A DNA stretch of 64,000 nt, taken from the NCBI GenBank assembly GCA_947303055.1, contig CAMYXV010000001.1:3961-67960 (forward strand), read 5' to 3'. The notes beneath the pieces were generated by a model. It searched no databases. It was not told the DNA's origin and saw only the letters and a list, made by a program, of their open reading frames with translations. The position numbers and the translations under genes are program-made. Below are positions 1,233 through 61,327 of this stretch, in pieces (position 1 is the stretch's first letter; every line of letters starts with the position of its first letter). This DNA comes from an uncultured Bacteroidales bacterium (GTDB taxonomy: Bacteria > Bacteroidota > Bacteroidia > Bacteroidales > F082).

Positions 1233-1250
1233 TTTATAAACATAAAGATT

Positions 1251-1844: not shown

Positions 1845-2096
1845 ATGGCTGTAGAACAGCTTTTAGATGAGTATAAGGAAAATGGATTTGAAATAAAATC
1901 CCAATATCCTATTATTGGCTCTCTAAGAGTGGATTTATTTGCGGTCAAAGGAGATGAAAGGATAGCTATTGAGTTTGTGGATAATCAAACTTCTGATGAT
2001 ACAGTATCACGATTGCAGCAAATCGCGCAGGAAGAGGATTTTGTCCTAAAACTTATAGACATTTCAGCTATACAATTAGAATACAAAAACTTATGA
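1845..2096 (+). CDS. small hypothetical protein (about 83 aa from the MAVEQLL start); possibly a nuclease-like fold
   Basis: Its stop overlaps the next start by ATGA at 2093-2096. The stretch SLRVDLFAVKGDERIAIEFVD loosely resembles a PD-(D/E)xK core, but the ExK element is not intact. The start could be the upstream ATG at 1803. Confidence 0.4.
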   Translation: MAVEQLLDEYKENGFEIKSQYPIIGSLRVDLFAVKGDERIAIEFVDNQTSDDTVSRLQQIAQEEDFVLKLIDISAIQLEYKNL

Positions 2097-44892: not shown

Positions 44893-44898
44893 TGGTGG

Positions 44899-45792
44899 GT
44901 GACTATGGCAACAGTTGATGATGTAAGAATCATAGAGCTGCCCAAGTTCTTGGACGCTCGAGGCAACCTTTCGTTTGCTGAGCAATTGAATCATATTCCG
45001 TTTGAGATTAAGCGGACGTATTGGATTTACGATGTGCCCGGTGGTGAAGCCAGAGGTGGACATGCTTTCAGGCAGAACCAGGAAGTGGTGGTTGCCTTAT
45101 CCGGCTCGTTTGACGTGATTGTCGATGACGGCAACCAGCGAAAGACCTTCGCCTTGAACCGTTCCTACTACGGGCTCTATATCCCCGCAGGGCTTTGGCG
45201 TACGATGGAGAATTTTTCCACCAATTCATTGGCTTTGGAGTTTGGATCCATGCATTATGATGTGAACGATTACATCTATGACTATGAGGAATACCTCCAG
45301 CTTCGCAAGGCGATTCCTGAACAGAAACCATTGGTTGCTGTTAACGAACCATCGGCCTCGACTGCGATGCCAGTAAAAAAATACAACGTCTTCGACTGCT
45401 CCATGGTGGAACTCGACCGACACCACAGCGACCGCAAGGGCAACCTCACAGTGGTGGAGAACGGTCAGACCTTGCCCTTTGACGTGAAGCGCGTGTACTA
45501 CCTCTACGACGTGCCAGGTGGCGAGAACCGCGGCTCGCACGCTCATAAAGAATTGAGCCAGCTGATTATTGCTGCTTCTGGCTCTTTCACTGTTACGTTA
45601 GATGACGGTAAATGCAAACGGTCGTTTTTCCTCAATCGTCCTTACCAAGGTTTGTATGTGAAACCAGGAATGTGGCGTGACTTGGAGGACTTCTCCTCGG
45701 GAGCCGTCTGCATGGTGCTGGCCAGCGATGTGTATCTGGCTTCGGATTATATTAGGGATTATCAGGAGTTTTTGGAGTTTAGAAATCAATAA
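44899..45792 (+). CDS. tandem-duplicated FdtA/WxcM-like sugar 3,4-ketoisomerase (two cupin domains)
   Basis: Two copies of the motif set are present. Copy 1: LPKFLDARGNLSFAE...YDVPGGEARGGHAF. Copy 2: LDRHHSDRKGNLTVVE...YDVPGGENRGSHAH. Confidence 0.8.
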   Translation: MTMATVDDVRIIELPKFLDARGNLSFAEQLNHIPFEIKRTYWIYDVPGGEARGGHAFRQNQEVVVALSGSFDVIVDDGNQRKTFALNRSYYGLYIPAGLWRTMENFSTNSLALEFGSMHYDVNDYIYDYEEYLQLRKAIPEQKPLVAVNEPSASTAMPVKKYNVFDCSMVELDRHHSDRKGNLTVVENGQTLPFDVKRVYYLYDVPGGENRGSHAHKELSQLIIAASGSFTVTLDDGKCKRSFFLNRPYQGLYVKPGMWRDLEDFSSGAVCMVLASDVYLASDYIRDYQEFLEFRNQ

Positions 45793-45802
45793 ACATCATA
45801 TT

Positions 45803-47092
45803 ATGTCAGAAAGAAAACGTATTTATCTCTGCCTCGCCCACATGTCGGACGAAGGCCTTGAACAAAAGTATATCAAAGAAGCATTCGACACCAATTGGGT
45901 GGTGCCGCTTGGACCGAACGTTAACGGATTTGAAAAGGACCTCGAGGAATTCGTGGGTCAGAACAAAAGGGTAGTGGCCTTGTCTGCAGGTACTGCTGCT
46001 GTACATCTGGCTTTGATTGCCTGCGGTGTGAAGTCTGGTGATGAAGTGTGCGTGCAGAGCTTCACTTTCTGTGCTTCGTCGCACCCGATTACTTATCTGG
46101 GGGCTACACCAATCTTCATCGATAGCGAGAAGGATACCTGGAATATGGATCCGGAACTGCTGGAAGAGGCCATTAAAGATCGTATTGCCAAGACGGGCAA
46201 GAAGCCAAAAGCGATTGTCCCTGTGGCTTTGTATGGAATGCCTTATCAGATTGATAAGATTATGGCCATTGCTGAGAAGTATGATATTCCAGTTGTCGAG
46301 GATGCTGCCGAGGGCTTCGGTAGCCGCTGGAAAGGTCAGGTACTGGGCACCTTTGGTAAATACGGTGTACTATCGTTCAATGGCAACAAGATGATTACCA
46401 CTTCTGGTGGCGGTGCTCTGGTGACCGCCAACGAGGACGAGTGGCGCGAGATTATGATGTATGCCACGCAGTATCGCGAGAGCTATCCTTATTATCAACA
46501 CGAGAAGATTGGTTTCAACTACCGTATGAGTAACATCTGCGCTGGTATCGGCCGTGGTCAGATGACGGTGGTGAATCAGCACATAGAACACCACAAACAC
46601 GTACAGGCTCTTTACGAGGAGCTGCTGGCTGGCGTGCCCGGCATCGCCGTGCATTCGCAGCCTAAAGGTCACACAGATAGCACAGATAACACAGATAAGG
46701 TTCCTGTCTTCGACAGTAACTATTGGTTATGTACCATAACCCTTGACCCCTTGCTCCGCATCAAAGGTCAGGAGAACGCCTACAAGACCATCGTGACCGG
46801 TGCCGTGGGTGGCGCTGCCGGTGTGATTCATGCCGCTTCGTCAGCTGTTACGAACTGCCAGCCTAACGACAACGTTGAAGCACTCCGCGTCTTCATGGAT
46901 GCCGCTGGCATTGAGGCCCGTCCCGTGTGGAAGCCCATGCACAAGCAGCCAGTCTATAAGAACTGCCCCGCCTATGTCAATGGCGTTTCAGAGGCCATTT
47001 TCAAAGTGGGTATGTGTTTGCCTGCCGGACCGTATGTGAGCGACGAGGATGTGAAGTATATTGTAAGCTGCATCAAAGATGCAATTAAGTAG
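45803..47092 (+). CDS. DegT-family PLP-dependent sugar aminotransferase
   Basis: Start at MSERKRIYLCLAHMS (the track ORF from 45677 overlaps the previous gene). LSFNGNKMITTSGGGAL carries the PLP Lys. Paralogue of the gene starting at 62983. Confidence 0.85.
   Translation: MSERKRIYLCLAHMSDEGLEQKYIKEAFDTNWVVPLGPNVNGFEKDLEEFVGQNKRVVALSAGTAAVHLALIACGVKSGDEVCVQSFTFCASSHPITYLGATPIFIDSEKDTWNMDPELLEEAIKDRIAKTGKKPKAIVPVALYGMPYQIDKIMAIAEKYDIPVVEDAAEGFGSRWKGQVLGTFGKYGVLSFNGNKMITTSGGGALVTANEDEWREIMMYATQYRESYPYYQHEKIGFNYRMSNICAGIGRGQMTVVNQHIEHHKHVQALYEELLAGVPGIAVHSQPKGHTDSTDNTDKVPVFDSNYWLCTITLDPLLRIKGQENAYKTIVTGAVGGAAGVIHAASSAVTNCQPNDNVEALRVFMDAAGIEARPVWKPMHKQPVYKNCPAYVNGVSEAIFKVGMCLPAGPYVSDEDVKYIVSCIKDAIK
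46672..46697 (+). repeat. in-frame 9-nt tandem repeat CACAGATAn x3 inside the aminotransferase gene
   Basis: CACAGATA at 46672, 46681 and 46690, encoding TDSTDNTDK. Confidence 0.8.
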
Positions 47093-47113
47093 CCTTGATA
47101 GTCAGCTGGGAAG

Positions 47114-47134
47114 TTGATAGTTGAATGTTGAGAG
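47114..47134. repeat. TTGAnnn x3 array (7-nt phase) just 5' of the WbuC start
   Basis: TTGA at 47114, 47121 and 47128 (also 47095). Confidence 0.6.
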
Positions 47135-47139
47135 TATCA

Positions 47140-47538
47140 ATGGTTATCACACAAGCGATATTAGATGATTTATCGAGGCGGGCGAAGAACTCGCCTCGGT
47201 TGCGTATGAATCTCGATTTACGTAACTCAGAATAGGACTGTTCCCAAAGGATGCTCAATGCCATTGAACCCGGTTCTCCTGAATGCATACACAGACATCA
47301 GCATACATCGGAAACCGTTGTTTGTATTAGAGGCCGAGTGGTGGAAGAATTTTATGACGAGTTGGAGCGTATCTGCACGGATTCGATCGTGCTAACACCC
47401 AATGGCCCCAACGTAGCAATTAACATCCCTGCCGGCCAATGGCACTCTATCCGTGCGGTGGAATCAGGCTCTGTGGTGCTTGCCGTGAAAGATGGGAAGT
47501 ATGAGCCGCTGGGAGAGGAAGATATATTGGCTCTATAA
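47140..47538 (+). pseudogene. wbuC: WbuC-family cupin, interrupted by an in-frame amber codon
   Basis: The ATG at 47140 gives MVITQAILDDLSRRAKNSPRLRMNLDLRNSE, then TAG at 47233-47235. The same frame continues as DCSQRMLNAIEPGS...HRHQHTSETVVCIRG (the track ORF 47251-47538). Confidence 0.7.
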
Positions 47539-47614: not shown

Positions 47615-48514
47615 ATGAAAAAGAACAAGCTAGCATACGAACAGGTGATTGATAATCTCAGCAGAGCCGGTGTTGACTACTATTCTTCTGCTGAGTATGA
47701 AATACAAATCCTTAAAAGCGCTTTTGAAAAATGCGATGACTCTTGTCTGTACCCTTATGTCCCTATGAGATTGGTGGCTCTAATGGAAGGCTATTTTCAA
47801 GAGCTTTATTCCAATATCATCGATGCTGATGTTAAGTATAGAAAGAACTTTGCAAAGCTTGTGAAAGATTTGCAGTTTGAGTCACCCATCATTGATTCTT
47901 TTGAGCGGAATACTATCACATTTGGCGAATATGCGTCAATGTTGTTGTCGTGCAACAAACATGAAGATGTACTGACCAATATTTCTACCTTACTTGACAC
48001 TGACAAACTTAAAGAGAAGTTTAAAGATACTAGCATACTGTCAGATGTAAAAGAAGTTTTCTATTATCGACATATATTTTGTCACGAGATTGCCGGTAAC
48101 ATAATATTAGAGCATAGTAAAATCCTGAAAATGATAGACTCTGTATCTGATTTTATGAGAATCGCTGGTGACTTCGTTTCATCAATCTTATATCCCAATG
48201 CTCCCGAATTAACACCTGATATTATTGATGAGGCCATGAGAGACTTTGAGGCAAAAGACAAGGAACTTCGTGAGCTAATAAAATGGTTGAAAGAAAATGT
48301 GGATATTGAATATTTGGGCACTGATTTCAACTTTATGGATGTCTTTGAGGAATATAGGAAAAGACGTACAGAAAAAGTGTGTGAGCAATATGCCGATGGA
48401 ACAATCTATGGCTACATCTATGCCCAATCAATGGCCGAAATAACAGAAGAACTCATAAACGGTTTGAAAAAGAAATATAGGGTTTGGTTAAGGGCATATA
48501 ATTTACCGCACTAA
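47615..48514 (+). CDS. hypothetical protein (299 aa) with a candidate HEPN Rx4H motif
   Basis: All-helical-looking sequence. FYYRHIFCHEIAG contains R-x4-H followed by E. AT-rich composition. Confidence 0.45.
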   Translation: MKKNKLAYEQVIDNLSRAGVDYYSSAEYEIQILKSAFEKCDDSCLYPYVPMRLVALMEGYFQELYSNIIDADVKYRKNFAKLVKDLQFESPIIDSFERNTITFGEYASMLLSCNKHEDVLTNISTLLDTDKLKEKFKDTSILSDVKEVFYYRHIFCHEIAGNIILEHSKILKMIDSVSDFMRIAGDFVSSILYPNAPELTPDIIDEAMRDFEAKDKELRELIKWLKENVDIEYLGTDFNFMDVFEEYRKRRTEKVCEQYADGTIYGYIYAQSMAEITEELINGLKKKYRVWLRAYNLPH

Positions 48515-48793: not shown

Positions 48794-50986
48794 ATGACTA
48801 TGATAATACGCAATGCTGGTGATAAAGATCATGACAAAACGTATTGCGTGTTTGCTATCCGTGTGAATAGAGATGGCTCAACGGGTCAGCGTAAACTGAT
48901 GGCCGATGTGCCGTATTATCTGATGCAAGGATTCTCAATAGACGGTGATACGATAAGGATAGAAAAACATGCGGACACTCTTCTTCGGGACAGCATATTC
49001 AACCAATCATATCAAAATCAAACAACTCGTGCGCATTTGAATTTTAGTGCCATTGTGGGAATGAATGGCTCTGGAAAAAGCACATTAGTTGAATATATGC
49101 TTCGGTTGATTAACAATTTTTCGGCTTCGGTTTTTGGTGAATATAAGAAGAATGTGGCAACAGACAGATTGCATTTTATTGATGGTGTTGATGGCGAGCT
49201 TTATTATTATTCAAAGGGATTGCCGTATTGTTTAGCAGTTAAGAATGACAAGGTTTCCCTATCCCATTACTCATTCAAAAGGATCACTGATGACAATGGT
49301 GCGTTCCTGTTTGAAAGAGATTGTGATTTTTATAATAACCACAGAAGCGGTGACAATGAAAAAAATCATGCTCCTTTTTATGAATCCACCAATCGTGACA
49401 TTAAAAATTTCTTTTACACGTTAGTCTCGAATCACTCTATTTATGCGTATAATGCAAATGATTTTGAAAATGAATGTTGTGATAATTTAGTAGAACGTCG
49501 TTTTGACAAGGAGTACTATACGAGTCATCAACTTGAGATGCCTGAAGAGATAAATACAAAGGAGTATTCGGTAGAAGAAAGATGTTGGCTGCATGGTCTT
49601 TTTCATAAGAACGATGGGTATCAGATTCCTTTGGTTCTTAATCCATTCAGAAAAGAAGGTTGTATTGACATCAACAATGAAAACAAACTGGCTAAAGAAA
49701 GGCTTGTGTCGCTAATTGTCAGTCCGGGCAGTGAGTTTCGCAGGATTAACGGCCATTTGGAAGTTGTCAGCCTCACTTTGAAGAGGAAGACTGATACATA
49801 CGACCGAAACTATATAAACACAAAACTTAAGGCTGGCATTGACAACGATGAAGACTATGAGGCGATAAAATCCATTATCTTTGAAGAATGGCTTGATGTT
49901 TTGAATGTTGACAAAGACTTTGGTAAAGGGAAACGGTATTATGAAGATACAAAGAATTATGTTTGTTACAAAACTTTGAAGATAGCGAAACAATACCGCC
50001 AATACCAATTCTTTTTCGATAGGTTTCAAAAGAAAGCATGGAAACTTGTTGGTGATGATATACAACAATTGATAGAAAGATTATTACTTGATTCATCTCA
50101 TATTACAGGGAAACTGTTCCAAGCGCTTAACTATTTGATTTTTGACATTTATAATGATGAGGCTATTGAGCAACCAATGCCACTCGATTCAATTAAAATG
50201 CAAAAAAAGGCAGATGGTTCAAAGATTGAATATCCACAAACATTTCTAAGCGCATCGAAGGTTAAACTGATACCATCCCCAATTTTTAATGTCACCATTG
50301 ATTTGAAAGATTCAAATGATGGTAGGGTTGTTGATTTCGAGACTTTAAGTTCTGGAGAAAGGCAATTAACCTATGCGGTTAGTTCACTCCTATACCATTT
50401 GAACAATATTGATTCGGTGGCCGAAGACAATAATGGATTAAGGCTTGTTTACAAGAAGGTAAACATAATTCTTGAGGAAGTTGAGCTATATTTTCACCCC
50501 GAATTACAAAAGCAACTTGTAAAATACATCATTGATGGCGTTGGACAACTCAATTTTATGTCTATCCAAGGTATCAATTTCATTTTGGTTACACATTCGC
50601 CATTTGTTCTGTCAGACATTCCGTCAACCAATATCCTGGCATTGACTAAGGATGGTATGGTAAGCGATGGTATTCGTTCGTTTGGGTCTAATATACACGA
50701 CATGCTGAAGGATAGCTTCTTCCTTCAAACAGGATGGATTGGTGATTTTGCTCAGGATCATATACATCGACTGGTTGAGCAATTGCAGGAGAATCATTTA
50801 GATAAAGAAGAATGTGAAAAACTGCATAGAAAGATTATGCTGATTGACGAACCTGTAATGCGGACACTGCTTCTTGAAAAATATCATGATGTATGTTCTG
50901 AACCGATGGCCGAACAGCGCATTGCTGAACTTGAGAAAGAATTGAAAGAATTAAAGGTAGATAGACCGGATGTGGAAGTTAAATAA
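48794..50986 (+). CDS. ABC/SMC-like AAA ATPase (Septu PtuA-like), 730 aa
   Basis: Walker A GMNGSGKST, signature-like LSSGERQLTYAVSSLLYHL, Walker B NIILEEVELYFHPELQ and H-loop ILVTHSPFVLSDIP. Confidence 0.75.
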   Translation: MTMIIRNAGDKDHDKTYCVFAIRVNRDGSTGQRKLMADVPYYLMQGFSIDGDTIRIEKHADTLLRDSIFNQSYQNQTTRAHLNFSAIVGMNGSGKSTLVEYMLRLINNFSASVFGEYKKNVATDRLHFIDGVDGELYYYSKGLPYCLAVKNDKVSLSHYSFKRITDDNGAFLFERDCDFYNNHRSGDNEKNHAPFYESTNRDIKNFFYTLVSNHSIYAYNANDFENECCDNLVERRFDKEYYTSHQLEMPEEINTKEYSVEERCWLHGLFHKNDGYQIPLVLNPFRKEGCIDINNENKLAKERLVSLIVSPGSEFRRINGHLEVVSLTLKRKTDTYDRNYINTKLKAGIDNDEDYEAIKSIIFEEWLDVLNVDKDFGKGKRYYEDTKNYVCYKTLKIAKQYRQYQFFFDRFQKKAWKLVGDDIQQLIERLLLDSSHITGKLFQALNYLIFDIYNDEAIEQPMPLDSIKMQKKADGSKIEYPQTFLSASKVKLIPSPIFNVTIDLKDSNDGRVVDFETLSSGERQLTYAVSSLLYHLNNIDSVAEDNNGLRLVYKKVNIILEEVELYFHPELQKQLVKYIIDGVGQLNFMSIQGINFILVTHSPFVLSDIPSTNILALTKDGMVSDGIRSFGSNIHDMLKDSFFLQTGWIGDFAQDHIHRLVEQLQENHLDKEECEKLHRKIMLIDEPVMRTLLLEKYHDVCSEPMAEQRIAELEKELKELKVDRPDVEVK

Positions 50987-51989
50987 AGTTGGTGGCTCGA
51001 TTCTGAAACAATATACACAAGAGTTGCTGGCCGATCTTAAAAAAGGGATAACAGAGAAACTATTGCCATCAGAGGTAAGTGTTTTGATTCCCAATTACGG
51101 GACATCTGTTGAAGATTTGTCGGTTTTAATAGATTTATTAACTGCAGAGCCACAACAGCTGATTGCGCTAAACACAGCAATCATGTCGCAACTTGTTTCA
51201 GGTTATACTGAAGCGGATTTGCTAGCGTATCAGAAAGCTAAAATAAAGAAAAACAAACAGTCTTCTGACATAAATCTTATCAATCAATACGAAGATGTAT
51301 TAGCGCGGCTGAAAGAAGCCTTTGATTACAAGGGTAATATAACAAACAATCCCAATAGGGCGTACCGTTTGACCGAGATGAAAGGCTCAAATGTTTGTAC
51401 ATACTGTAATCGGCAATACATCTTCACCGTAAACAAACCAAGAAACAGAAGTCTTAGGCATATTGTAAGGCCCGAACTGGATCATTGGTTTTGTCAAGAA
51501 TTATTTCCGCTACTTTCTTTGTCATTCTATAATCTTATTCCGAGTTGTCATATTTGCAATAGCACAGCAAAAGGAAGCGCTGTATTTAGTTTGTCAACAC
51601 ACATTCACCCATACATTCAGCACAATCCAAACCCTAACATATCTTTTAAGCCAGTGCCATCAACTTTATATCCTTCGCATATTGGAGTAAAGATTGACAG
51701 ACGACAGGGCTCTCGAGAAGATGCAACGATTAAGGCTTTTGCGCTGGATGAGATTTACGATTTACATGGACATTTGGAAGTTGAAGAACTTTTTAAATTC
51801 AATAATACATACAGTACAGGATATTTGAAGATAGTGTTTAAGGATTTGCTTAATGAATTCTGTCCGACTTTAACAAAAGCCGAAGTCTATCGGATGCTGT
51901 TCGGAACAGAATTGGACCCGAAAAGATTCGGAGAACGACCGATGAGCAAGTTGAAATATGACATATTGAAGTATCTTAAGGTAATTTGA
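50970..51989 (+). CDS. HNH endonuclease-family protein (Septu PtuB-like), 339 aa
   Basis: CTYCNRQY...RPELDHWFCQELFPLLSLSFYNLIPSCHICNSTAKG (CxxC...DH...N...CxxCN). It overlaps the upstream ATPase gene by 17 nt. Confidence 0.75.
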   Translation: MWKLNKVGGSILKQYTQELLADLKKGITEKLLPSEVSVLIPNYGTSVEDLSVLIDLLTAEPQQLIALNTAIMSQLVSGYTEADLLAYQKAKIKKNKQSSDINLINQYEDVLARLKEAFDYKGNITNNPNRAYRLTEMKGSNVCTYCNRQYIFTVNKPRNRSLRHIVRPELDHWFCQELFPLLSLSFYNLIPSCHICNSTAKGSAVFSLSTHIHPYIQHNPNPNISFKPVPSTLYPSHIGVKIDRRQGSREDATIKAFALDEIYDLHGHLEVEELFKFNNTYSTGYLKIVFKDLLNEFCPTLTKAEVYRMLFGTELDPKRFGERPMSKLKYDILKYLKVI

Positions 51990-51993
51990 TATA

Positions 51994-54900
51994 ATGACCA
52001 AACAAATGGAAGAAAGAGTAATCAATCAATTTGGTGTAAAACCCATATATATAGACAAGAACGAAGGGAAAATCCACATTGACAATAACTATGTGGAGGA
52101 ACCTTCTTTTGCCTTTAAGAATGGGTCATACGAGTTGCTTGGCTATACTCCAACCATTCAACCGTCCATACATAGGCCGGAAGTTAATCAAATAATAAAT
52201 TGGATAGAGAGGGATGCTTCTACCGACCAATCAGCCAGGATAGCGTTGCTTTATGGAAAGGCTGGTATTGGTAAGTCGGTGGTTATGCATGACGTTTTGG
52301 TTGCTTTGAATGATAATCCGGAGTACCTTGTTTATGGATTGAAGTCGGACCAGGTGGAGTTTGTGGATACGGATGACCTTGGTCGTAAAATACACTTGGC
52401 GCAACCCATTGATGTTGCCATTAGTGAGATGGCTCAGAAACATAAGCGAGTGGTTGTGCTTATTGATCAAATTGACGCTTTATCTTTATCGTTATCCTCA
52501 AATCGCGCTCCTTTACGTTCGGTGCTTAAACTGATAGGACAGATAAAAAATATACCACATGTAAGAGTTGTTATTTCGTGCCGTCCATATGACTTGGAGT
52601 ATGATCCGCTGCTTGATGAATTGCGGATAAAAAACAAATGGGAATTAAAGGAATTCACGCCAAATCAAGTTACCCAAATTCTACATGAAAACAATTGTCT
52701 AGAACGGGTGAGTGATAATTTGATGCGTTTTCTGGGGAATCCCCTCAACTTGTTCCTATTCTTAAAGGTTAAGCCCAACGAACAACTGACCGACTCGCTG
52801 TCAACTGATTTGTTGTACCATCAGTTGTGGAGGAAATATGTGACCGATGACAGTGTTCGCAAAGTGAATAAAGATAGGCTGTTGACATTGCTTGATGCTA
52901 TAGTGTCGGAAATGTACAAACGTCAGGAACTTTCGTTACACATTAGGGCTTTTGAAACAGAATACGATGCGGAGTTAAGATACCTTTTCACCAACGAACT
53001 ACTTCTGGTAACAAAAAATGGGCATATTCAGTTCTTTCACCAGACGTTGTTTGATTATGTCTATGCAAGAAGGTTTACTGAGCATGGATATGATTTGCTT
53101 GAAGGGCTGAAATCGCAACACCAAGGTCTATTCTCAAGGGCGGCGGTGAAAAGCATTTTGACTTTCCTCCGTGAGCAAGACCCGGCTAAATATATTGATG
53201 TAATAAACCAGTTGCTTTATGCTAAAAACGAGTATGGCAAGCCCGTTTATCGCTATCATCTGAAATCGCTTGTGTTGAGCAATATGGCCTTTTTTGATGA
53301 GCCTTTAAAGGAGGAAACAAATCTTATTGCCAAAAAAATATTTGACGATAAGGTATATATGGATGTGATTTTCGAATCGGTCCATACAGTCAACTGGTTT
53401 GATGTGGTATGGCAAACAATTAACAATAGAGGTGGTTGGAAATCGTTAAGTACAGACTATAAGGAAAAAGTAATGCTGATGTGCCAGAGAACACTTTGGT
53501 CTGATGCTGCGGTTGTGCTTGATAGAGTTGAGAGGTCATTGAATTGTAATAACGAAGCGGATTGCAAATACATCGGCAATTTGATTCAGTATTATGATTT
53601 GCGCTGCGACAGCAAAAAACTCATAGCTTTTTACAATAGACTAGTCAAGACACGAAATCCACTGGAATATACACATCTTTTAAAAAATATTCTGAAGGAA
53701 GATCCTGAATTTGTATGTCAGGAGTTGAAAGAGAATATTAGGCTTCAGTTACAGGAGAAGGAAACAGATAGCTTTCATCGCATTAAATTAAGCCATGAAA
53801 CTGAAATGCTCTATCATGAGTTGTTGCAAAAACACCATAAACGAGCCATACAACTCTTGATTGATTCGTTGACTCTTGTTTATGAATCAACGAAATATGA
53901 AATAGAAGGCTCCGATATATATAATTCATTAGAGTTTTTTACTTTCCAAAGGACATCAGGCGGAAATTTCGGAACCAAGTTTTCAGAGGATGCTGTAAAC
54001 ATTATTCTTGATGATTTTACCCAAAATGCTGATAGCGATCTCACCAAACGGTATCTTTCAGAATTTAGCTCAAGCAAACATGAAGGGTTTGTGTTTATTG
54101 CATTATTTGTATATGCATCGTGCCCGAACCTGTATAAGGATGAGTTTTGTAAGCTTGTTGTAAGCAGGCAGGTGCTGTCTAACGCCCCTACTTGGGTGGA
54201 ATATCAAGCTGTGGAAGCTTTAAAGGTAATATTCCCATTGTTGTCGGGTACTCAGAAGATTGCTGTCATTGATAGGATTCTTGCCATTGAAGATAATGGC
54301 GAAAAGAGGCTGTATCCTAAGGAGATGAGAGCGGAGAGGGTGGAATATCTTCATCCTATTCTTGATATTGATATACACAAAGGTAAAGCTCTTGAGGTTA
54401 TACCAATTGGCGAGCTGAGGAAACTTTCGTGGACAGCCTATCAGGAGCGCCAAAGAATTGATAGGAAGTTTAATAGCAGGCGTTTGGAAAATGTTAAGCC
54501 GTCAAGTTTTTCAGTCCATTCGGGTTGGAGTTCCCTAACTGTTGAGCAAGGTGTTAAAATGAGTTGTAAAACTTGGTACAACTCGATGCTTAAGTATAAC
54601 ACGAATGCCCATCATGAATGGAATAAACCCTCATTGACAGGTCAATGTGAATTATTCAGAGAGGTGGTGAGCCGCAATCCTGATAAGTATTTAGAACTAA
54701 TTGACAAGATAATCCAAGATGACGAGATTTTGTTGGCCTATCCAGAGGCAGGTATGCGTGGGCTGATTGATGCCAACAGGATAGCAGAGGCGGAACATGT
54801 GCTGCAAGGGATTCTTGGAGTAATTGGCAATGATGTTAATTCAGAAAAAAGGGGCTTTAGCATACATTCTTTCCTCTTTGCCATCAATGATATGATAAAG

Positions 54901-55941
54901 GGCGATACTATGCCTGAAAGCGTATTCAGATTATTGTGTAATACGCTTGTCAACGCCAAGGAACCCAAGGATGACATACATAAAGGAGAAAAGGACGTTT
55001 ATAATGTCGGCATCAATCAGGCACGGGGTAATGCCGGATATATGTTGGTTGAATGTGCCAAAAACACACAACACAAGGATGAGGTTTTTTCGACAATAGA
55101 ACAAATTGCAGAGACGGCATCGGTATATACAAGGGCTGCAATATTGTTGAATATGGCCGCACTAAATTTCTTGGATCAAAAAAGGAATGTAGTGTTGTTC
55201 AAGAAACTCTTGCACGACTATGATCCAAGGTTGATGTCAATGCCGGTTCATAATTACAATCCTTTGGTCTATTTCATCAACTATGCGGCTGATGATTTGA
55301 TAGATTTCTTTAACCATGCGGCAAATTGTCCCGATTGCTATCGTGAGCAGGTTGTTATATTGTGGTTGGCATGGTCGCACAATAATCATGATGAAAGGTT
55401 TAAAACTTTGCTTGATACAATGTGCGAAAACAGTCAAGAAGCAAGAATTTCATTGTTACATTTCTTGAGTACGTTGGGAAATAAAGCTGATGAAGATGCG
55501 TCTGCTTTCGTGTTACGTTTCTTTGATGCTCGGTTTGATTCAATGGAAATGGGAGATGCTTGTGATGACCTGTTCCACAATCTTGATTCATGGCCAGAAG
55601 AATTGCAGTTCCAGATAGCAGATGCATTTGTGACTTCTCCATTGAGTTCTCACAAGACAAATTCGTTCATTGGCTACTTGGCCGGATACGCAATAAAAGA
55701 CCCTGTCCAAACACTGAAATGGTTGGAACAAATCATACATGACAATGTTCCAGATGATTACTTTGTATGGAATAAAGTCATCGATGTAATCATACAATCC
55801 TACAATGGCATTAAGTCATTCAACGACAGCGCTTATCAAGATACTTTGGAGCATGCCCTTGATATGATAGATGGTGCCATGCTGAACCCTAGTAGGAAAT
55901 ACCTGGTTTCCAATTTCATCAACAAACTTGACAATGAATAA
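51994..55941 (+). CDS. NACHT-like STAND P-loop NTPase with a long helical-repeat C-terminus, 1315 aa
   Basis: Walker A LLYGKAGIGKSVVM, Walker B VVVLIDQIDAL, and the NACHT-type VVISCRPYDLEY motif. About 1000 aa of helical sequence follow. It starts 4 nt after the HNH gene. Confidence 0.75.
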   Translation: MTKQMEERVINQFGVKPIYIDKNEGKIHIDNNYVEEPSFAFKNGSYELLGYTPTIQPSIHRPEVNQIINWIERDASTDQSARIALLYGKAGIGKSVVMHDVLVALNDNPEYLVYGLKSDQVEFVDTDDLGRKIHLAQPIDVAISEMAQKHKRVVVLIDQIDALSLSLSSNRAPLRSVLKLIGQIKNIPHVRVVISCRPYDLEYDPLLDELRIKNKWELKEFTPNQVTQILHENNCLERVSDNLMRFLGNPLNLFLFLKVKPNEQLTDSLSTDLLYHQLWRKYVTDDSVRKVNKDRLLTLLDAIVSEMYKRQELSLHIRAFETEYDAELRYLFTNELLLVTKNGHIQFFHQTLFDYVYARRFTEHGYDLLEGLKSQHQGLFSRAAVKSILTFLREQDPAKYIDVINQLLYAKNEYGKPVYRYHLKSLVLSNMAFFDEPLKEETNLIAKKIFDDKVYMDVIFESVHTVNWFDVVWQTINNRGGWKSLSTDYKEKVMLMCQRTLWSDAAVVLDRVERSLNCNNEADCKYIGNLIQYYDLRCDSKKLIAFYNRLVKTRNPLEYTHLLKNILKEDPEFVCQELKENIRLQLQEKETDSFHRIKLSHETEMLYHELLQKHHKRAIQLLIDSLTLVYESTKYEIEGSDIYNSLEFFTFQRTSGGNFGTKFSEDAVNIILDDFTQNADSDLTKRYLSEFSSSKHEGFVFIALFVYASCPNLYKDEFCKLVVSRQVLSNAPTWVEYQAVEALKVIFPLLSGTQKIAVIDRILAIEDNGEKRLYPKEMRAERVEYLHPILDIDIHKGKALEVIPIGELRKLSWTAYQERQRIDRKFNSRRLENVKPSSFSVHSGWSSLTVEQGVKMSCKTWYNSMLKYNTNAHHEWNKPSLTGQCELFREVVSRNPDKYLELIDKIIQDDEILLAYPEAGMRGLIDANRIAEAEHVLQGILGVIGNDVNSEKRGFSIHSFLFAINDMIKGDTMPESVFRLLCNTLVNAKEPKDDIHKGEKDVYNVGINQARGNAGYMLVECAKNTQHKDEVFSTIEQIAETASVYTRAAILLNMAALNFLDQKRNVVLFKKLLHDYDPRLMSMPVHNYNPLVYFINYAADDLIDFFNHAANCPDCYREQVVILWLAWSHNNHDERFKTLLDTMCENSQEARISLLHFLSTLGNKADEDASAFVLRFFDARFDSMEMGDACDDLFHNLDSWPEELQFQIADAFVTSPLSSHKTNSFIGYLAGYAIKDPVQTLKWLEQIIHDNVPDDYFVWNKVIDVIIQSYNGIKSFNDSAYQDTLEHALDMIDGAMLNPSRKYLVSNFINKLDNE

Positions 55942-57154
55942 GGCGTATGAGTTGGAACAACTCCGACAATTGTTGATGAGTCCGGGATTAAAGTCGGGTC
56001 TTTATCTGCTTGATACAGATCTTTCTGATGAAGATATAGAGGCTTTTATAAAACATCAGGGCTTCTCGTCTTATGTGAAAGAATCCCTTTTTCCTTCAAT
56101 AGAGGGGTCTGCATTCGAACTTTTTGTAATAGGATTAAGTTACAAATGTAATGATAAGGTAATAGACGGCCTACGAGGTCAGCTTTTTACGGCAGAGGGG
56201 AAAAGGAAGGAAATAATCATATATAGTATGTTTATACAGATGATACAAACACTTTTCCCATCAGAGAAGTCTGTTTTACAGGTTGTGGGTGAGATGGACT
56301 TGTCAATGATTTGTCATGAGGATTTATGTTTGATAAACGAAGCTCTAGGTCACAATAGTGAGGTTGTTCTATTAATAAGCAAAAACAAGGGAGCTTTTTC
56401 GCAAAAGTGTGATCCTATAATAAATAGAGTTTCTTTTAAAGAAGAAAAAAAATACATATTTATGGAAAATAGATTGGACAAGGTGCACATTTCATACAAA
56501 CACGATGATGAACACAAAGATGTGTTAGAGGCTATAAAAAGAGGGTTGGATAAAAACAAAATCCCATATTCAATAGACGAATATGATATTCTTTATCGCG
56601 ACAATATTGAAGATTACGAAAAAGAGATAGGATTATCAGGAAGAGTTATTATGTTTGTAATACCATCATATCTGAAGTCGCTAGCCTGTATGTTTGAGAT
56701 GACACAAATGTTTAAAAATGGAAATGTTAGAGAACGACTATTCCCTGTAGTTGATATGAAAGGTATACGTCGAGACGGAGATGGGCTTAAAGAGATAAAA
56801 GATTATTGGCATAATGAAAAATGTAGAAAGTCTGAACAAATAAAGACAGAACCAGGTGGTTCGGAATTTATTCTCAAAGAAATCCAAAAAATCGATGAAA
56901 TTATCAATACTATGAATAAATTGTGGGATTTCTTGATTAATGAGAATACGGGTGATTATAAAAAGTTAATTGAAAACGATGCAGCATTGCTGATGGAGGA
57001 ACTAAAGAGATCGTTGCCTCAAGTCTCCGCTCCGATTGATAATGTTTTTGTTCCATCTGGTGATACTAAGCCAACCGAATATCAAACAGTTAATCAATAT
57101 GGTGAGAAATCTATCTATGTTCAGAATAATTCTGGGAACATTATTATAAACTGA
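55928..57154 (+). CDS. TIR-like domain protein (408 aa) with an unknown N-terminal domain
   Basis: KVHISYKHDDEHKDVLEAIKRGLDKNKIPYSID ... VIMFVIPSYLKSLACMFEMTQMF. It overlaps the NTPase gene by 14 nt. Confidence 0.7.
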   Translation: MTMNKAYELEQLRQLLMSPGLKSGLYLLDTDLSDEDIEAFIKHQGFSSYVKESLFPSIEGSAFELFVIGLSYKCNDKVIDGLRGQLFTAEGKRKEIIIYSMFIQMIQTLFPSEKSVLQVVGEMDLSMICHEDLCLINEALGHNSEVVLLISKNKGAFSQKCDPIINRVSFKEEKKYIFMENRLDKVHISYKHDDEHKDVLEAIKRGLDKNKIPYSIDEYDILYRDNIEDYEKEIGLSGRVIMFVIPSYLKSLACMFEMTQMFKNGNVRERLFPVVDMKGIRRDGDGLKEIKDYWHNEKCRKSEQIKTEPGGSEFILKEIQKIDEIINTMNKLWDFLINENTGDYKKLIENDAALLMEELKRSLPQVSAPIDNVFVPSGDTKPTEYQTVNQYGEKSIYVQNNSGNIIIN

Positions 57155-57408
57155 AATGTTATTATGCCATTAAAAAAGCCGCCTATGCAGACGGCTCGAT
57201 AATTTTACACTAGTGTGGTTTTTAGAGAGTGCCGAAGCGTGGATGAATGCCTAGATTTCATTCAAGCCTGTAGAGTTCTTCTCCAGGCGTGACGAATCCC
57301 TTTCGCTGAATGACCTCTTTGCAGATATTAATCAGTACACCTCCATGTGGGATTTGGCCTGAACATCCACTTGTTTAACGTCGCTATCTCCATAGTCCGA
57401 CGACCTAA

Positions 57409-58380
57409 ATGGCGGTGCAAAATTACAAAAAAATCATGACATACCCGATAGAAATCAAAGGAAAGACAAAAAAGCAAGTCACGAAGCTGAACCTTTCTGG
57501 TTGTAAATTAACTTCTTTCCCTGAAAACATATTTGAATATACCAACCTTACAAAGCTGGTTTTGAGCAACAATAGGATTAAGGTTATCCCAGCGGATATA
57601 CTGAAATTGAAGAAGCTCAAAATGCTTGATTTATCGAACAACGAAATAAAAGTCTTGCATAGTGCTGTATTCAAACTACCGAAATTGAAGATTCCGAATG
57701 TTTATGGAAACCAAATAAAAAAGTTCCCTAAACAGGTGTTTGAATCACATTTGGAAAAGATAATTGTTGGGAAAAACCCAATGGAAAACGAAGAAATAGA
57801 GAAAATAAGTTTGCTTTGTGAGGTAGTCGCAGATAAGAACCAATTCAGTTCTTCAACGATAAAAGTAGAAGAATCAAACAAGGGAGAAGTTAAAGTGGAA
57901 GATATGAAAAAAGACAAAAATACTGAGCAGAAACACAGCATTTTTATTAGTTATTCGCATAAGGATATGGAGTGGTTGGGTAGAGTAAAAACCCACTTAA
58001 AGCCACTGGCAAGATATTATAGCATTGACGAGTGGGATGACCAAAAGTTGAGGACAAGCGATAAGTGGAAAGAAGAAATAACAAAGGCTTTAAACAATGC
58101 TACGATAGCTATATTGTTGTTTTCTCCTGATTTTATGGCTTCTGATTTTATCGTCAATAACGAACTACAGCCTTTGCTCGATAATGCCAAAAGTGGTGGG
58201 GTGAGGATTATGCCTGTATTTGTAAGGCCGTGTGCAATGTTTGAAGAGAGTGGCCTTTCGGATTATCAGGCACCAAGCGGTAAGGAAAGGACATTAATTG
58301 AAATGAATGAAGGTGAAATTGACAGGACGTTGATGAAATTGGTTGAAGATATAAAACATTTTATCAATAAGAATAAATAA
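57409..58380 (+). CDS. leucine-rich-repeat + TIR domain protein (323 aa)
   Basis: LRR units (LNLSGCKLTSFPENIF, LTKLVLSNNRIKVIP, LKMLDLSNNEIKVL). TIR core HSIFISYSHKDMEWLGRVKTHLKPL ... IAILLFSPDFMASDFIVNNELQPLL. Confidence 0.85.
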   Translation: MAVQNYKKIMTYPIEIKGKTKKQVTKLNLSGCKLTSFPENIFEYTNLTKLVLSNNRIKVIPADILKLKKLKMLDLSNNEIKVLHSAVFKLPKLKIPNVYGNQIKKFPKQVFESHLEKIIVGKNPMENEEIEKISLLCEVVADKNQFSSSTIKVEESNKGEVKVEDMKKDKNTEQKHSIFISYSHKDMEWLGRVKTHLKPLARYYSIDEWDDQKLRTSDKWKEEITKALNNATIAILLFSPDFMASDFIVNNELQPLLDNAKSGGVRIMPVFVRPCAMFEESGLSDYQAPSGKERTLIEMNEGEIDRTLMKLVEDIKHFINKNK

Positions 58381-58412: not shown

Positions 58413-59450
58413 ATGAAGAACATACTTGTGACTGGTGGTGCCGGGTTTATCGGCTCGAACTTGATAAAGCGTCTTTTCGCTGACTTGAAGGGCGCAACGA
58501 TTGTGAACATCGATAATATGAATGCCTATTACGATGTCAGTTTGAAAGAGTATCGCTTGAAGGAACTTGATGCGATGGTTCCCGAAGGGATAAACTATAA
58601 GTTTGTGAAAGGCTCAATTGCTGACAAGGCTTTGGTGGATAAACTCTTTGAGGACTATAAGTTCGATGTGGTGGTGAACCTTGCAGCCCAAGCTGGAGTT
58701 CGCTATAGCATCGAGAACCCTGACGTGTATATTGAAAGCAACATCATTGGTTTCTACAACATCCTCGAAGCCTGCCGCCACAACCCCGTGGAACATCTTG
58801 TGTATGCATCGTCATCCAGCGTGTATGGCGGCAACAAGAAGGTGCCGTTTGCGGTGGAGGACAGGGTGGACAACCCCGTTTCGCTCTATGCCGCCACCAA
58901 GAAGAGCAACGAGCTGTTTGCCCATTGCTACTCGAAGCTTTACAACATCCCATCAACTGGCCTTCGTTTCTTCACCGTGTATGGCCCTGCCGGAAGGCCC
59001 GACATGGCCTACTTCGGTTTCACCAACAAGCTGCTGCGTGGCGAAACTATCCAGATCTACAACTACGGCAACTGCCGCCGCGACTTCACCTACGTGGACG
59101 ACATTGTGGAAGGCATAGTGCGCGTGATGGCGAAAGCCCCTGAGAAACGCAATGGCGAAGACGGCCTGCCTCTGGCTCCATACGCGGTTTACAACATTGG
59201 TGGCGGCCAGCCGGAGAACCTGCTGGACTTTGTGCAGACGTTGCAAGAGGAGCTTTTGAGAGCTGGTGTCCTACCGCAGGACTATGACTTCGAAGCCCAC
59301 AAGCAGCTGGTGCCTATGCAGCCTGGTGATGTGCCGACCACGTATGCAGATGCTACGGCTTTGGAACGGGATTTCGGGTTTACTCCAAAGATTACGCTGA
59401 GAGAAGGATTGCGGAAGTTTGCGGAGTGGTATAAGGCTTACTACAAATAG
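58413..59450 (+). CDS. NAD-dependent nucleotide-sugar epimerase (UDP-glucuronate 4-epimerase-like)
   Basis: VTGGAGFIGSNL and YAATKKSNE (YxxxK). Extended SDR length. Confidence 0.9.
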   Translation: MKNILVTGGAGFIGSNLIKRLFADLKGATIVNIDNMNAYYDVSLKEYRLKELDAMVPEGINYKFVKGSIADKALVDKLFEDYKFDVVVNLAAQAGVRYSIENPDVYIESNIIGFYNILEACRHNPVEHLVYASSSSVYGGNKKVPFAVEDRVDNPVSLYAATKKSNELFAHCYSKLYNIPSTGLRFFTVYGPAGRPDMAYFGFTNKLLRGETIQIYNYGNCRRDFTYVDDIVEGIVRVMAKAPEKRNGEDGLPLAPYAVYNIGGGQPENLLDFVQTLQEELLRAGVLPQDYDFEAHKQLVPMQPGDVPTTYADATALERDFGFTPKITLREGLRKFAEWYKAYYK

Positions 59451-59512: not shown

Positions 59513-60235
59513 ATGTTGCCAATAAAAGAATTGACACCTGTAGAAAAGGAAATTGATGTATTGTTGGGGAAGTCGGCTTTCTACCTCCAGACCTATCGTG
59601 CGATTGATGCATTGAATATGTTGCAACAGGCACGGGAAATGGCAGAAACAAATGAAGTGAATAGTCAGATAAGAGCTGTCATCTATAGAAATATGGGGCA
59701 AGCCCAGTTTCAGTCGGGAAAATTCGACGATGCGATGAGCAATTTTATTCTCAGCTATGAAACCTTTGAAGATGAAAACGACAAAGCGGCAGCAGCAGGA
59801 TTGATCGCCGATTATTACCTGCAGGCTGGGAAGTGCGAGGAAGCCCATGGATATGCTAACAAGGCTTTAGGTTTGGCTAAAGCTCCCGAACTGATGGCAC
59901 ACCCATACCAGATTATGGGTGGCATAGCTATTGAAGAGGGAGACTATCCTAAAGCATTGGAATTAATGAACAAGGCTGCGGAAAAGGCAGAAGAGGCTCA
60001 TTGTATAACCGATCTGGCCATGATTATCATGGATATTTCGGTTATTTTTGTGAAGATGGGAAAACTGGAGACGGCTCTTAGTGAGATGTTCCGGGCGGAA
60101 CGCTATGTGAAGGAATGTAGGAATTGGGATTTGTATTTGCGCTGTGCCATCAGACGGGCTAAGGTTTTATACAAGATGGGACGAGACGAAGAGGCTAAAA
60201 AACTCGTATGCGCATTGGAGGAACATAAGCGATAG
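59513..60235 (+). CDS. tetratricopeptide-repeat protein (240 aa)
   Basis: Repeated 34-aa helical units (YRNMGQAQFQSGKFDDAMSNF, IADYYLQAGKCEEAHGYANKAL, MGGIAIEEGDYPKALELMNKA). Confidence 0.65.
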   Translation: MLPIKELTPVEKEIDVLLGKSAFYLQTYRAIDALNMLQQAREMAETNEVNSQIRAVIYRNMGQAQFQSGKFDDAMSNFILSYETFEDENDKAAAAGLIADYYLQAGKCEEAHGYANKALGLAKAPELMAHPYQIMGGIAIEEGDYPKALELMNKAAEKAEEAHCITDLAMIIMDISVIFVKMGKLETALSEMFRAERYVKECRNWDLYLRCAIRRAKVLYKMGRDEEAKKLVCALEEHKR

Positions 60236-60238: not shown

Positions 60239-61327
60239 ATGGGTAAACTGATGTTCAGTGCAGCGGAAATAAACGCGCTCCCTACCATTTTGGACGTTGT
60301 GGAGCAACTATCTGTCGTGGAGAATCAAATGGCGCTTAGAACGTCGTCAATCATACCGCCCATGCAGTTTTTTGACGAAGGCCGCTACAGTTTTGTGTCG
60401 GATTCCCATAATCACAATATTGTACGCCTGATGCCAACGTCACAAACGCCATTTCTATTCTTTCGCGGGCAAAGCCGGTATCATGATCCATGTTATCCTA
60501 CATTATACAGAGGGGAAAAGGAAGGAGAGCTGGCGTCCGAAGAGGATGTGGCAAGCAATCGCATCAAAATATGTGAATTCTCTTTTTTGTTGGGCACACA
60601 TCCTGTTTTTCGCGAAGTAGCGCTTAATACCCATGTGGATATGGTGGCATTGGCTCAACACTATGGGCTGTCAACGGAGTATCTGGATATTACCAACAGT
60701 AAGTGGGTGGCAGCTTTCTTTGCCTCAACTCGTTATGAAGGTGACACGGATTCATATTGCCCTGTAGGGAGAGACTATGCTGAAGGATATGGTGTGATTT
60801 ATGTTGCGAAAGATGTTGTGGATCAATTTTCGGATGCTTTTTTTGAGAAGAACGAGGTGATCGGTTATCAGTATTTCGAGCGCCCCTCAAAACAGTCGTC
60901 ATTTGGATTTAAGCTGAATAAAGGTGAGGATTTCAATCAGCTGCCTTATTTTGAAAAAGTGTTTTTTAGGCACGATATAGAGGCCTCAAGCATTGTGTAC
61001 AATATGGCATATCGTCAAAATCGGTATGTGCCAAGAGACGAGCTTTCGAAACTGGCGCGTATCATAGCTGATAGTAATGAGGTGACAAGACAAGCATTGT
61101 TTAAGTGTTGGCAGACCTATTATCAAGATAAGGATCTCGTTTATTTGGATAAGGTGTGTGCAAATAAAGGATGGAAGATTCGCGAGGATACCAAGCCGAT
61201 AGCGAAGTTTGACGAGGCAGTTTTGGCTGACGATTGGAAAAAATGGAATGAATTTGGCCGTGAAAACCTGAAATCACGTATTCTACCGCTTATTGCAGTG
61301 ACCAGCGTCCCATATGAAAATGAATAG
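60239..61327 (+). CDS. FRG-domain protein (362 aa)
   Basis: FFRGQSRYHDPCYPTLYRG and ALAQHYGLSTEYLDITNSKWVAAFFA. It starts 3 nt after the TPR gene stop. Confidence 0.8.
   Translation: MGKLMFSAAEINALPTILDVVEQLSVVENQMALRTSSIIPPMQFFDEGRYSFVSDSHNHNIVRLMPTSQTPFLFFRGQSRYHDPCYPTLYRGEKEGELASEEDVASNRIKICEFSFLLGTHPVFREVALNTHVDMVALAQHYGLSTEYLDITNSKWVAAFFASTRYEGDTDSYCPVGRDYAEGYGVIYVAKDVVDQFSDAFFEKNEVIGYQYFERPSKQSSFGFKLNKGEDFNQLPYFEKVFFRHDIEASSIVYNMAYRQNRYVPRDELSKLARIIADSNEVTRQALFKCWQTYYQDKDLVYLDKVCANKGWKIREDTKPIAKFDEAVLADDWKKWNEFGRENLKSRILPLIAVTSVPYENE

Follow-up and report, generated by a model that had tools for sequence, protein, structure and literature searches.

A NACHT protein and a separately encoded TIR effector sharing a short terminal motif in Bacteroidota, adjacent to a PDC-M62 gene pair

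The stretch of DNA analyzed here (64,000 nt from an uncultured Bacteroidales bacterium, hereafter the window) contains, at 48794-57154, four genes encoding an ABC/SMC-type ATPase (gene 1), an HNH-type nuclease (gene 2), a NACHT NTPase resembling NOD-like receptors (NLRs; gene 3) and a TIR-domain protein (gene 4). A preliminary description had offered two readings of them, either two defence systems stacked head to tail or one composite four-gene system whose effector is supplied in trans. Gene neighbourhoods in a sample of ~100 related loci point to two independent defence modules arranged head to tail, genes 1-2 (module A) and genes 3-4 (module B), and not to one composite system. Considering all observations, namely domain identities, gene adjacency, effector swapping, motif similarity and motif co-variation, we think it likely that the two modules are independent and that, in module B, the NLR would fire the gene 4 effector through amyloid-like templating of a short motif carried by both proteins.

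A motif common to sensor and effector

The extreme C-terminus of the gene 4 protein (VNQYGEKSIYVQNNSGNIIIN) resembles a segment close to the N-terminus of the gene 3 protein (INQFGVKPIYIDKNEGKIHID), with 10 of 21 residues identical. When the gene 4 tail was slid without gaps along the 1315 residues of gene 3, the BLOSUM62 score reached 57 at residue 10 and 16 at the runner-up position, and the best score in 2000 shuffles was 39 (18.8 +/- 4.4). A hidden Markov model (HMM) built from 23 effector motifs retrieved effectors first and then ~30 NACHT N-termini at residues 5-24 (best E 1.5e-6), which outranked every unrelated open reading frame (ORF) among the 2158 searched. Over 19 loci, the mean NLR-versus-effector score was 45.8, compared with -17 +/- 9 for column shuffles. 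The motif was found at the C-terminus in ~110 of 120 effector homologues, where it sits behind a variable Pro/Ser/Thr-rich linker. Relative to the rest of the protein, it is enriched in N (x4.05), G (x1.96), V (x1.96), Q (x1.8) and I (x1.7) and depleted in K (x0.64), P (x0.19) and L (x0.08). A recent DNA duplication was rejected as its source, because the two coding stretches are identical at only 39 of 63 nt.

To characterize diverged relatives, ~1300-aa NACHT proteins whose N-terminal motifs had clearly drifted were collected across Bacteroidota, and six variant loci were taken. In each of them, the downstream effector ends with the matching motif variant (Table 1). Among eight clade-level pairs, cognate partners shared 10.5 of 21 residues versus 6.05 for non-cognate ones (mean BLOSUM score 52.9 versus 21.0), and the cognate effector was the best match in seven of the eight rows. 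In an exact permutation analysis, which ignores phylogeny, the other 40,319 arrangements all fell below the observed total (1/40,320). Co-variation was smaller in the main clade (permutation p = 0.00065, a statistic that likewise ignores phylogeny). As far as the sequences can tell, this is the pattern predicted by direct mutual recognition rather than by a constant third-party tag, and the comparative evidence for a motif-mediated coupling of genes 3 and 4 is strong.

Table 1. Motif variants in NACHT proteins and their downstream effectors at six diverged loci
Locus	NLR N-terminal motif	Effector C-terminal motif
L103	INQGGNNNLNIVNNNGSIYLN	INQGGKNNINIVNNSGPINIL
L104	INQDGSNNVNIGINKGTVNVN	INQSGENSIIIGNNNGTINIG
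L105	VLQTGNKAVAINQNEGNVIFN	NYQSGDHAVIINNNTGNITFN
L106	ISQSGHHNSNIGINNGSVFIG	ITQSGEHNINTGLNNGTQNIK
L107	NNQTGDNNRMYLIAHADTVNI	NYQNGSNNKIYNIDNADNATF
L108	KIILNDDSLYIEKNEGIINYV	ITMKGKNSTYIEKNKGKITIK

The preliminary description had also asked whether homologues of genes 3 and 4 are always paired. We found that the NACHT gene is nearly always followed by an effector gene, which in most Bacteroidales loci (a clade with 43-100% identity) overlaps the NACHT stop by 8 nt. The commonest effector form, which is also that of the window, has an N-terminal domain (N-domain), a TIR domain and the motif (~402-408 aa). In other loci, the N-domain and the TIR-motif part are two genes, or the TIR-motif part occurs alone. 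PLD forms could also be identified, either as an N-domain-TIR-motif-PLD fusion or as an N-domain-motif-PLD protein, and two-effector loci have, after the TIR gene, a second gene for another N-domain-motif-PLD protein. In a flavobacterial relative (L108, 8918-9112), a 64-aa ORF overlapping the NACHT stop encodes a hydrophobic helix and a clade-matched motif (…ITMKGKNSTYIEKNKGKITIKK); it is a minimal effector that probably acts on the membrane. Distant homologues of gene 3 (23-34% identity), distributed in Flavobacteriia, Cytophagia and Sphingobacteriia, are ~1500-aa all-in-one proteins with a fused Mrr-type nuclease (Mrr_cat) or a weak Trypsin_2 match, and they have no conserved downstream partner. 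Their fused domain ends where the alignment with gene 3 begins (approximately residue 34-59). Thus, in gene 3 the position of the cis effector is filled by the first ~30 residues.

Several variants of this layout were observed as well. NACHT proteins of 1430-1433 aa (L011:10001-14293, L023:7626-11927 and L030:7617-11918) have a ~125-aa N-terminal extension before the motif, which starts with a hydrophobic, membrane-like segment, and clusters of such extended proteins are abundant (for example, 208 members in P0069 and 363 in P0070). Relatives of 1404-1406 aa (L035:7572-11786 and P0276-P0282) have a fused ~200-aa N-terminal domain starting with MLETLLPLIGKGIITGAASKGG…, which gave no Pfam match and possibly represents a cis-fused, Bell/HeLo-like membrane effector. 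Decayed copies, including a 72-aa remnant ORF with the effector motif only (L030:12262-12480) and a NACHT gene shortened to 950 aa (L021:2119-4971), indicate turnover of the cassettes.

Domains of module B and proposed mechanism

Gene 3 had been described as a NACHT protein with Walker A/B and SCRP motifs, a long tract of helical repeats and no fused effector, and gene 4 as a TIR core behind an N-terminal domain. Both descriptions held in all parts, and profile searches kept gene 3 within STAND NTPases and gene 4 within the TIR fold. Gene 3 scored 35.2 bits against Pfam NACHT (cut-off 26.7) and has 589 homologues; Walker A (GKAGIGKS, aa 88-95), Walker B (VVLIDQID, 154-161) and ISCRPY (194-199) are invariant in the homologue alignment. 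The 87 residues preceding Walker A have no domain match, and the layout of a protein with a cis effector is thus not seen. The AlphaFold2 (AF2) model of residues 330-1315 is all-alpha, with a mean predicted local distance difference test (pLDDT) score of 88.9. Importin-beta, CRM1 and CAND1 were the top Foldseek matches of the sensor model, and the best query-based TM-score (TMq 0.38) was obtained for the Avs4-portal complex (8dgf_B). The closest solved relative by sequence is Salmonella SeAvs7 (9n00, E 1.9e-15), with the match confined to the NTPase region. The sensor alone had no sequence match in PDB, 9n00 included, and 9n00 was outside the top 50 Foldseek matches of the sensor model. We rejected an assignment of gene 3 to the Avs7 family, with the capsid as trigger, because its NTPase is similar but its sensor differs in sequence and fold. 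Because the likeness is restricted to the NTPase module, no trigger can be transferred from Avs7. The ~950-aa HEAT-like solenoid presumably binds a phage protein.

Gene 4 scored 37.5 bits against Pfam TIR_2 (cut-off 28). When its AF2 model (mean pLDDT 79.6) was used in Foldseek, the TIR domains of the plant NLRs RUN1, RPS4 and Roq1 were retrieved (probability 1.0, target-based TM-score (TMt) 0.46-0.60). The motifs HISYKHDD (aa 185-192) and CMFEM (aa 252-256, nt 56687-56701) are present, and the catalytic Glu in the latter (E255) is invariant in 39-42 homologues. Gene 4 is predicted to be an effector with TIR NADase-type activity. The last 25 residues are unstructured in the model. The N-domain occurs in only 39 clusters among 1.84e9 representative proteins (phmmer), and these are effectors of the same type of system or fragments thereof; it is carried by ~400-aa TIR forms, a 367-aa PLD form and stand-alone forms of 164-188 aa, and is thus common to TIR and PLD effectors. 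Beyond the TIR domains, Foldseek gave only weak AAA+ matches to the whole model (HslU, TnsC and ORC, TM below 0.3), and a PDB profile search with the N-domain gave nothing. A HAD-like 'DxDxS' reading of this domain was abandoned, as homologues do not conserve the second Asp.

Under the proposed mechanism, a phage protein would act as the trigger by binding the gene 3 solenoid, upon which the NACHT protein would oligomerize in an NTP-dependent manner and gather its N-terminal motifs. The clustered motifs would then form a beta-rich (amyloid-like, templating) nucleus that captures and converts the motif of the cognate effector, and the resulting clustering of TIR domains would lead to NAD+ cleavage through E255 and to abortive infection. 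In sister loci, the clustered domains would be single-HKD PLD nucleases or the small membrane peptide. TIR domains and single-HKD PLD nucleases need self-association to form their active sites; therefore, proximity-driven activation is a natural fit for the swapped effectors. In this scheme we infer the oligomerization, the cross-beta templating, the NADase activity, the trigger and any phage-defence phenotype. The scheme is drawn by analogy with NWD2/HET-S, the bacterial amyloid signalling sequence (BASS) pairs and Bab/Agp. The coupling between genes 3 and 4 is probably amyloid-like. The flexible linker and the motif, which is unstructured in the gene 4 monomer model, match descriptions of amyloid signalling motifs.

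Alternative readings and comparison with known systems

A composite four-gene system, in which the ATPase-HNH and NACHT-TIR pairs would be interdependent (with, for example, sensing by the ABC ATPase and execution by the NLR-TIR), appears improbable. It would agree with the tight spacing (-17, +4 and -8 nt) and single orientation of the genes, and with the presence of the same four genes in two near-identical metagenomic contigs. However, the arrangement was found in these contigs only. Homologues of genes 1 and 2, whose joint occurrence with genes 3 and 4 the preliminary description had wished to see surveyed, were absent from all of the ~60 other NACHT loci. PDC-M62 pairs with 59-66% identity were identified without NACHT or TIR genes and were followed by unrelated ones, such as DUF4209 and KAP NTPase genes, a DUF5677 gene, or a 1521-aa protein without Pfam match and an AAA_13 protein. 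The genes upstream of the NACHT gene also vary, including AAA_21+RloB, AAA_15+DUF4435 (twice), SMC_N/DUF3696, UpxY-like NusG, FRG, Fic, DegT+Bac_transf, VapE-like + KAP NTPase, AbiEii and DNA methylase. Moreover, genes 3 and 4 match no PDC-M62 component, and close packing to the upstream gene is a general trait of the NACHT cassette, whose 5' spacer is usually close to zero regardless of the preceding gene. Since homologues of genes 1-2 and of genes 3-4 keep separate and varied company, and the NACHT-effector junction is conserved behind unrelated genes, the composite reading is contradicted by the sampled loci and the stacked reading upheld. One observation counts in the other direction: some ABC-ATPase gene with a small partner lies directly upstream of the NACHT gene in 5 of ~17 contexts, so that a loose functional link with such pairs is conceivable. 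These pairs come from different families (PDC-M62, AAA_21+RloB, AAA_15+DUF4435 and SMC_N/DUF3696), and many loci have none. Pairs of at least four families were seen in L001, L007, L094 and L095 and in the window (48794-51989), with gaps of 4-408 nt. We regard the four-gene arrangement, which probably shares one transcript, as an ordinary case of stacked defence modules. For annotation, this means that closely packed operons in polysaccharide loci of Bacteroidales need not represent one system.

With regard to the motif, a serious rival, although we consider it rather unlikely, is that the NACHT-TIR pair is real and the motif is an ordinary docking peptide instead of an amyloid-like templating element. 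Such docking could involve a beta-hairpin or strand-addition interface, or a tail inserted into a pocket of the oligomerized NLR. Motif similarity and co-variation need only direct mutual recognition, and the conserved core of the motif contains charged residues (E-K). Two further features that favour docking also weigh against the amyloid-like reading. In PLD effectors and TIR-PLD fusions, the motif has a globular domain on either side, a position less usual for amyloid signalling motifs, although the RHIM motifs of RIPK1/3 are internal too. In addition, its NLR-side and effector-side versions differ systematically (KNEG/IYVG versus NNSG/IIIN), which makes conventional heterotypic beta-hairpin docking possible. 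Our main reading is further weakened by the low score (6.1 bits) that the NLR motif of the window reached with the family HMM, by the neglect of phylogeny in both co-variation statistics and by the lack of an assigned role for the gene 4 N-domain. The coil conformation of the motif in the AF2 monomer (pLDDT 55-61) is neutral on amyloid. On the other hand, the length of ~21 aa, the enrichment of N/Q/G/V/I and depletion of P/L, the terminal place behind a disordered linker, the layout with NLR N-terminus and effector C-terminus, and the mini-effector with a transmembrane helix all fit described amyloid signalling motifs, and one 21-aa peptide is common to structurally unrelated effectors. It is very improbable that the motif is merely an address for a third party (membrane-targeting, protease or chaperone), with gene 4 maybe being a stand-alone TIR system. 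Both proteins have the motif at a terminus, similar to sorting or degradation tags, and stand-alone TIR genes are common, the neighbouring LRR-TIR gene being an example. Yet a tag should stay constant, whereas the motif diverges strongly between clades and stays matched within cognate pairs; in addition, the 8-nt overlap and the strict NACHT-effector adjacency are conserved over 23-100% identity, and the motif takes the place that the cis effector has in all-in-one homologues.

It is a known principle that an effector can be provided in trans by way of a short motif or adaptor held in common. Amyloid signalling from NLRs to cell-death effectors is established in fungi; in bacteria, it has been shown by experiment for one non-NLR system, Bab/Agp (bioRxiv 10.1101/2024.11.07.622273), and has otherwise been predicted only in multicellular bacteria (bioRxiv 10.1101/2020.01.06.895854). 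In the BASS survey, whose motifs were from multicellular Actinobacteria, Cyanobacteria and similar organisms and whose text does not name Bacteroidetes, N, Q, G, V and I were enriched and K, P and L depleted in the bacterial motifs, and TIR2 was among the effectors (Dyrka, 2020; bioRxiv 10.1101/2020.01.06.895854). Genes 3 and 4 resemble the fungal NWD2/HET-S pair and the BASS1-10 Bell/NLR pairs in their adjacency, in a motif of ~21-25 aa at the NLR N-terminus and effector C-terminus that is similar within cognate pairs and has the same composition bias, and in the existence of all-in-one relatives with a fused effector. They differ from these pairs in their occurrence in unicellular, mostly host-associated Bacteroidota, in the order NLR to effector with an 8-nt overlap, and in their enzymatic effectors (TIR and PLD, up to two per sensor), in which the motif may be internal. 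For Bab/Agp (BASS11) of E. coli, amyloid signalling between adjacent genes was demonstrated (Ibarlosa et al., 2024; bioRxiv 10.1101/2024.11.07.622273). This anti-phage gene pair is also located in a defence island, its sensor (at the N-terminus) and its effector (at the C-terminus) have a short motif in common, and Bab is comparable with the 64-aa effector of L108 (transmembrane helix plus motif). However, Bab has a pore-forming Bell-like domain whereas gene 4 has a TIR domain, and the BASS11 residues (I87-G88-S89-V90, Q92, D99, N100 and four glycines) show no obvious fit to QxGxKSxYxENNxGxIxIN.

All-in-one NACHT/Avs proteins (bNACHT, Kibby et al., 2022/23; SeAvs7, Nature 2026, PMC13581612) share with gene 3 the NACHT module, a large helical sensor and the defence-island context, and the distant ~1500-aa Mrr-NACHT homologues of gene 3 have the same layout. 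In contrast, the effector of gene 3 is encoded separately, and its sensor has no detectable similarity to that of Avs7. STAND systems with effector-associated domains (EADs) or Death-like domains (Kaur et al., 2020, 2021; PMC8195603) similarly have a small module on the NTPase N-terminus and on separate effectors. EADs are predicted to act in homotypic recruitment and fold into alpha-helical domains several tens of residues long (PMC8195603), whereas genes 3 and 4 share a beta-prone peptide of 21 aa that is rich in N/G; neither gene was matched by an EAD model of Pfam. As for Thoeris, no ThsA-like gene (SIR2/SLOG or Macro) was found in the island and gene 4 had no ThsB match, the neighbouring LRR-TIR gene being the only one matched by ThsB models.

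We tentatively propose a Bacteroidota-wide NACHT family in which a co-evolving motif replaces the fused effector and allows amyloid-like firing of interchangeable trans effectors. The literature searched contained no mention of amyloid signalling motifs in Bacteroidetes, and genes 3 and 4 have no model in PADLOC, where their matches were marginal. Nor were descriptions found of the NACHT-then-effector order with an 8-nt overlap, of PLD and TIR-PLD effectors, of two motif-bearing effectors behind one sensor, or of membrane-anchored NACHT variants. If true, this would be a new amyloid-signalling motif family and the first genuine bacterial NLR activating enzymatic TIR/PLD effectors via amyloid, in unicellular gut and oral commensals. 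If confirmed, the two genes would offer a compact NACHT + TIR model for prion-like wiring of NLRs to enzymatic effectors, would explain how effector-less NACHT proteins signal and how one sensor drives two different effectors, and would widen the range of the mechanism to human-associated Bacteroidales, which are abundant. Ready-made orthogonal sensor-effector connectors would be available in the form of the co-varying motif variants.

Module A, gene borders and genomic surroundings

Genes 1 and 2 had been regarded as a Septu (PtuAB) architecture. The ATPase/HNH pair was recovered, and the profile matches place it in PDC-M62 rather than in Septu; 'Septu-like' is a fair term. Gene 1 matched PDC-M62A over its full length (E 5.3e-44, aa 47-722 on profile positions 27-591 of 597), as well as Pfam AAA_21 and AAA_15. 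Its best match to the PADLOC PtuA models (E 7e-17) was limited to the C-terminal half, and against the curated NCBIfam PtuA model NF041760 it scored 50.3 bits (aa 503-681 only), below the cut-off of 500. Gene 2 matched PDC-M62B (E 2.7e-48, aa 61-338) and PtuB models at E 1.5e-5 at best, and no Pfam model, including those for HNH. The two profiles thus fall on adjoining genes that overlap by 17 nt. The pair resembles Septu in combining an AAA_15/21 ABC ATPase with an overlapping HNH-type nuclease gene, and differs from it in the length of gene 1 (730 aa versus PADLOC PtuA profile lengths of 289-545) and in the partial and weak matches of the PtuA/PtuB models. Gene 1 contains GMNGSGKST (aa 89-97), LSSGERQL (518-525), LEEVELYFHP (560-569) and LVTHSPF (598-604), and gene 2 the HNH-type pattern CxxCN...DH...N...CxxCN (aa 143-197; CTYCN 143-147, ELDHW 169-173 and CHICN 193-197); all motifs quoted earlier for the four genes could be located in the translations. 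PDC-M62 is a computational candidate, which was found named in only one survey paper and for which no experimental test was found.

The features are summarized in Table 2. The listed junctions (-17 nt for genes 1/2, +4 nt for genes 2/3 and -14 nt for genes 3/4) and the common direction are as first described, except that the start of gene 4 is likely later. Its homologues all begin with 'MNK...', and their ATG gives an 8-nt overlap with the NACHT stop; the true start is therefore most likely the ATG at 55934, yielding 406 aa and the 8-nt overlap ATGAATAA with the gene 3 stop. Hundreds of full-length homologues (23-100% identity) show that the four genes are real. A promoter and terminator scan gave no more matches than shuffled sequences, and sigma-70 rules are not applicable to Bacteroidota.

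Table 2. Coordinates of genes, domains, motifs and neighbouring features in the window
Feature	Position	Strand	Remarks
Gene 1	48794-50986	+	730 aa ORF; ABC/SMC-type ATPase, PADLOC PDC-M62A (Septu-PtuA-like), by profile and Pfam searches
Gene 2	50970-51989	+	339 aa ORF; partner nuclease of HNH type, matched by PADLOC PDC-M62B; 17-nt overlap with gene 1
Gene 3	51994-55941	+	1315 aa ORF; STAND NTPase of the NACHT type, an NLR-like sensor lacking a fused effector; begins 4 nt downstream of gene 2
NLR-side motif (gene 3 aa 10-30)	52021-52083	+	Best match to the gene 4 tail in gene 3
NACHT NTPase core (gene 3 aa 83-232)	52240-52689	+	Profile match and motifs
Sensor region (gene 3 aa ~361-1315)	53074-55938	+	All-alpha HEAT/ARM-like solenoid, AF2 model
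Gene 4 as listed	55928-57154	+	408 aa ORF, TTG start
Gene 4 from the later ATG	55934-57154	+	Trans effector: lineage-specific N-domain, TIR, helical tail, flexible linker, motif
N-terminal alpha/beta domain (gene 4 aa 1-167)	55934-56434	+	pLDDT 85-93
TIR domain (gene 4 aa ~184-335)	56483-56938	+	TIR_2, AF2, Foldseek
Variable Pro/Ser/Thr-rich linker (gene 4 aa 363-380)	57020-57073	+	pLDDT below 50, poorly conserved
Effector-side motif (gene 4 aa 386-406)	57089-57151	+	Extreme C-terminus
Orphan ORF	47615-48514	+	299 aa, 5' edge of the low-GC island
Hairpin	57176-57197		3' of gene 4, before the LRR-TIR gene
LRR-TIR gene	57409-58380	+	323 aa
TPR protein gene	59513-60235	+	
FRG-domain protein gene	60239-61327	+	PADLOC PDC-S15, E 7e-14; 3 nt after the TPR gene

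As had been noted for the four genes, their GC content (0.36-0.41) is below that of the flanking polysaccharide genes (~0.49-0.54). The low-GC island (~47.5-58.4 kb) is wider than the four genes and also holds the orphan and the LRR-TIR gene. No match to the orphan was obtained in Pfam, PADLOC or NCBIfam; it is conserved along with the island in L092 and L093, where it is 100% identical. The LRR-TIR protein has three LRR_8 repeats followed by TIR_2, a Toll-like-receptor-style layout, and its matches to ThsB-like PADLOC models reached E 2.5e-17. It was rejected as a part of module B: it lacks the motif, lies 254 nt after gene 4 behind the hairpin, is absent from the other loci, and the sister contig L092, nearly identical elsewhere, has an allele of it with only 58% identity. 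The sister contig additionally has an AbiH gene after the LRR-TIR gene and a second, diverged PDC-M62-like pair (439-3721; 806 aa and 291 aa, with 32% and 31% identity to genes 1 and 2), located ~3 kb upstream of the first, with DegT, DUF6016 cupin and the 299-aa orphan in between.

The flanks contain polysaccharide-biosynthesis genes, NTP_transferase/RmlA, FdtA, DegT and DUF6016 cupin upstream and an NAD-dependent epimerase downstream, which form a long one-directional locus (43975-47538 and 58413-59450) interrupted by the defence island. In several unrelated Bacteroidales loci (L005, L008, L011, L019 and L105), NACHT-effector cassettes also adjoin capsule/O-antigen genes (DegT, Bac_transf, UpxY-like NusG, glycosyltransferases and PS_pyruv_trans), which suggests that the cassettes are co-transcribed with such loci or occupy a hotspot inside them. 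Beyond the epimerase, the TPR and FRG genes are a possible further defence pair, and in L012 an FRG protein is encoded directly upstream of the NACHT gene.

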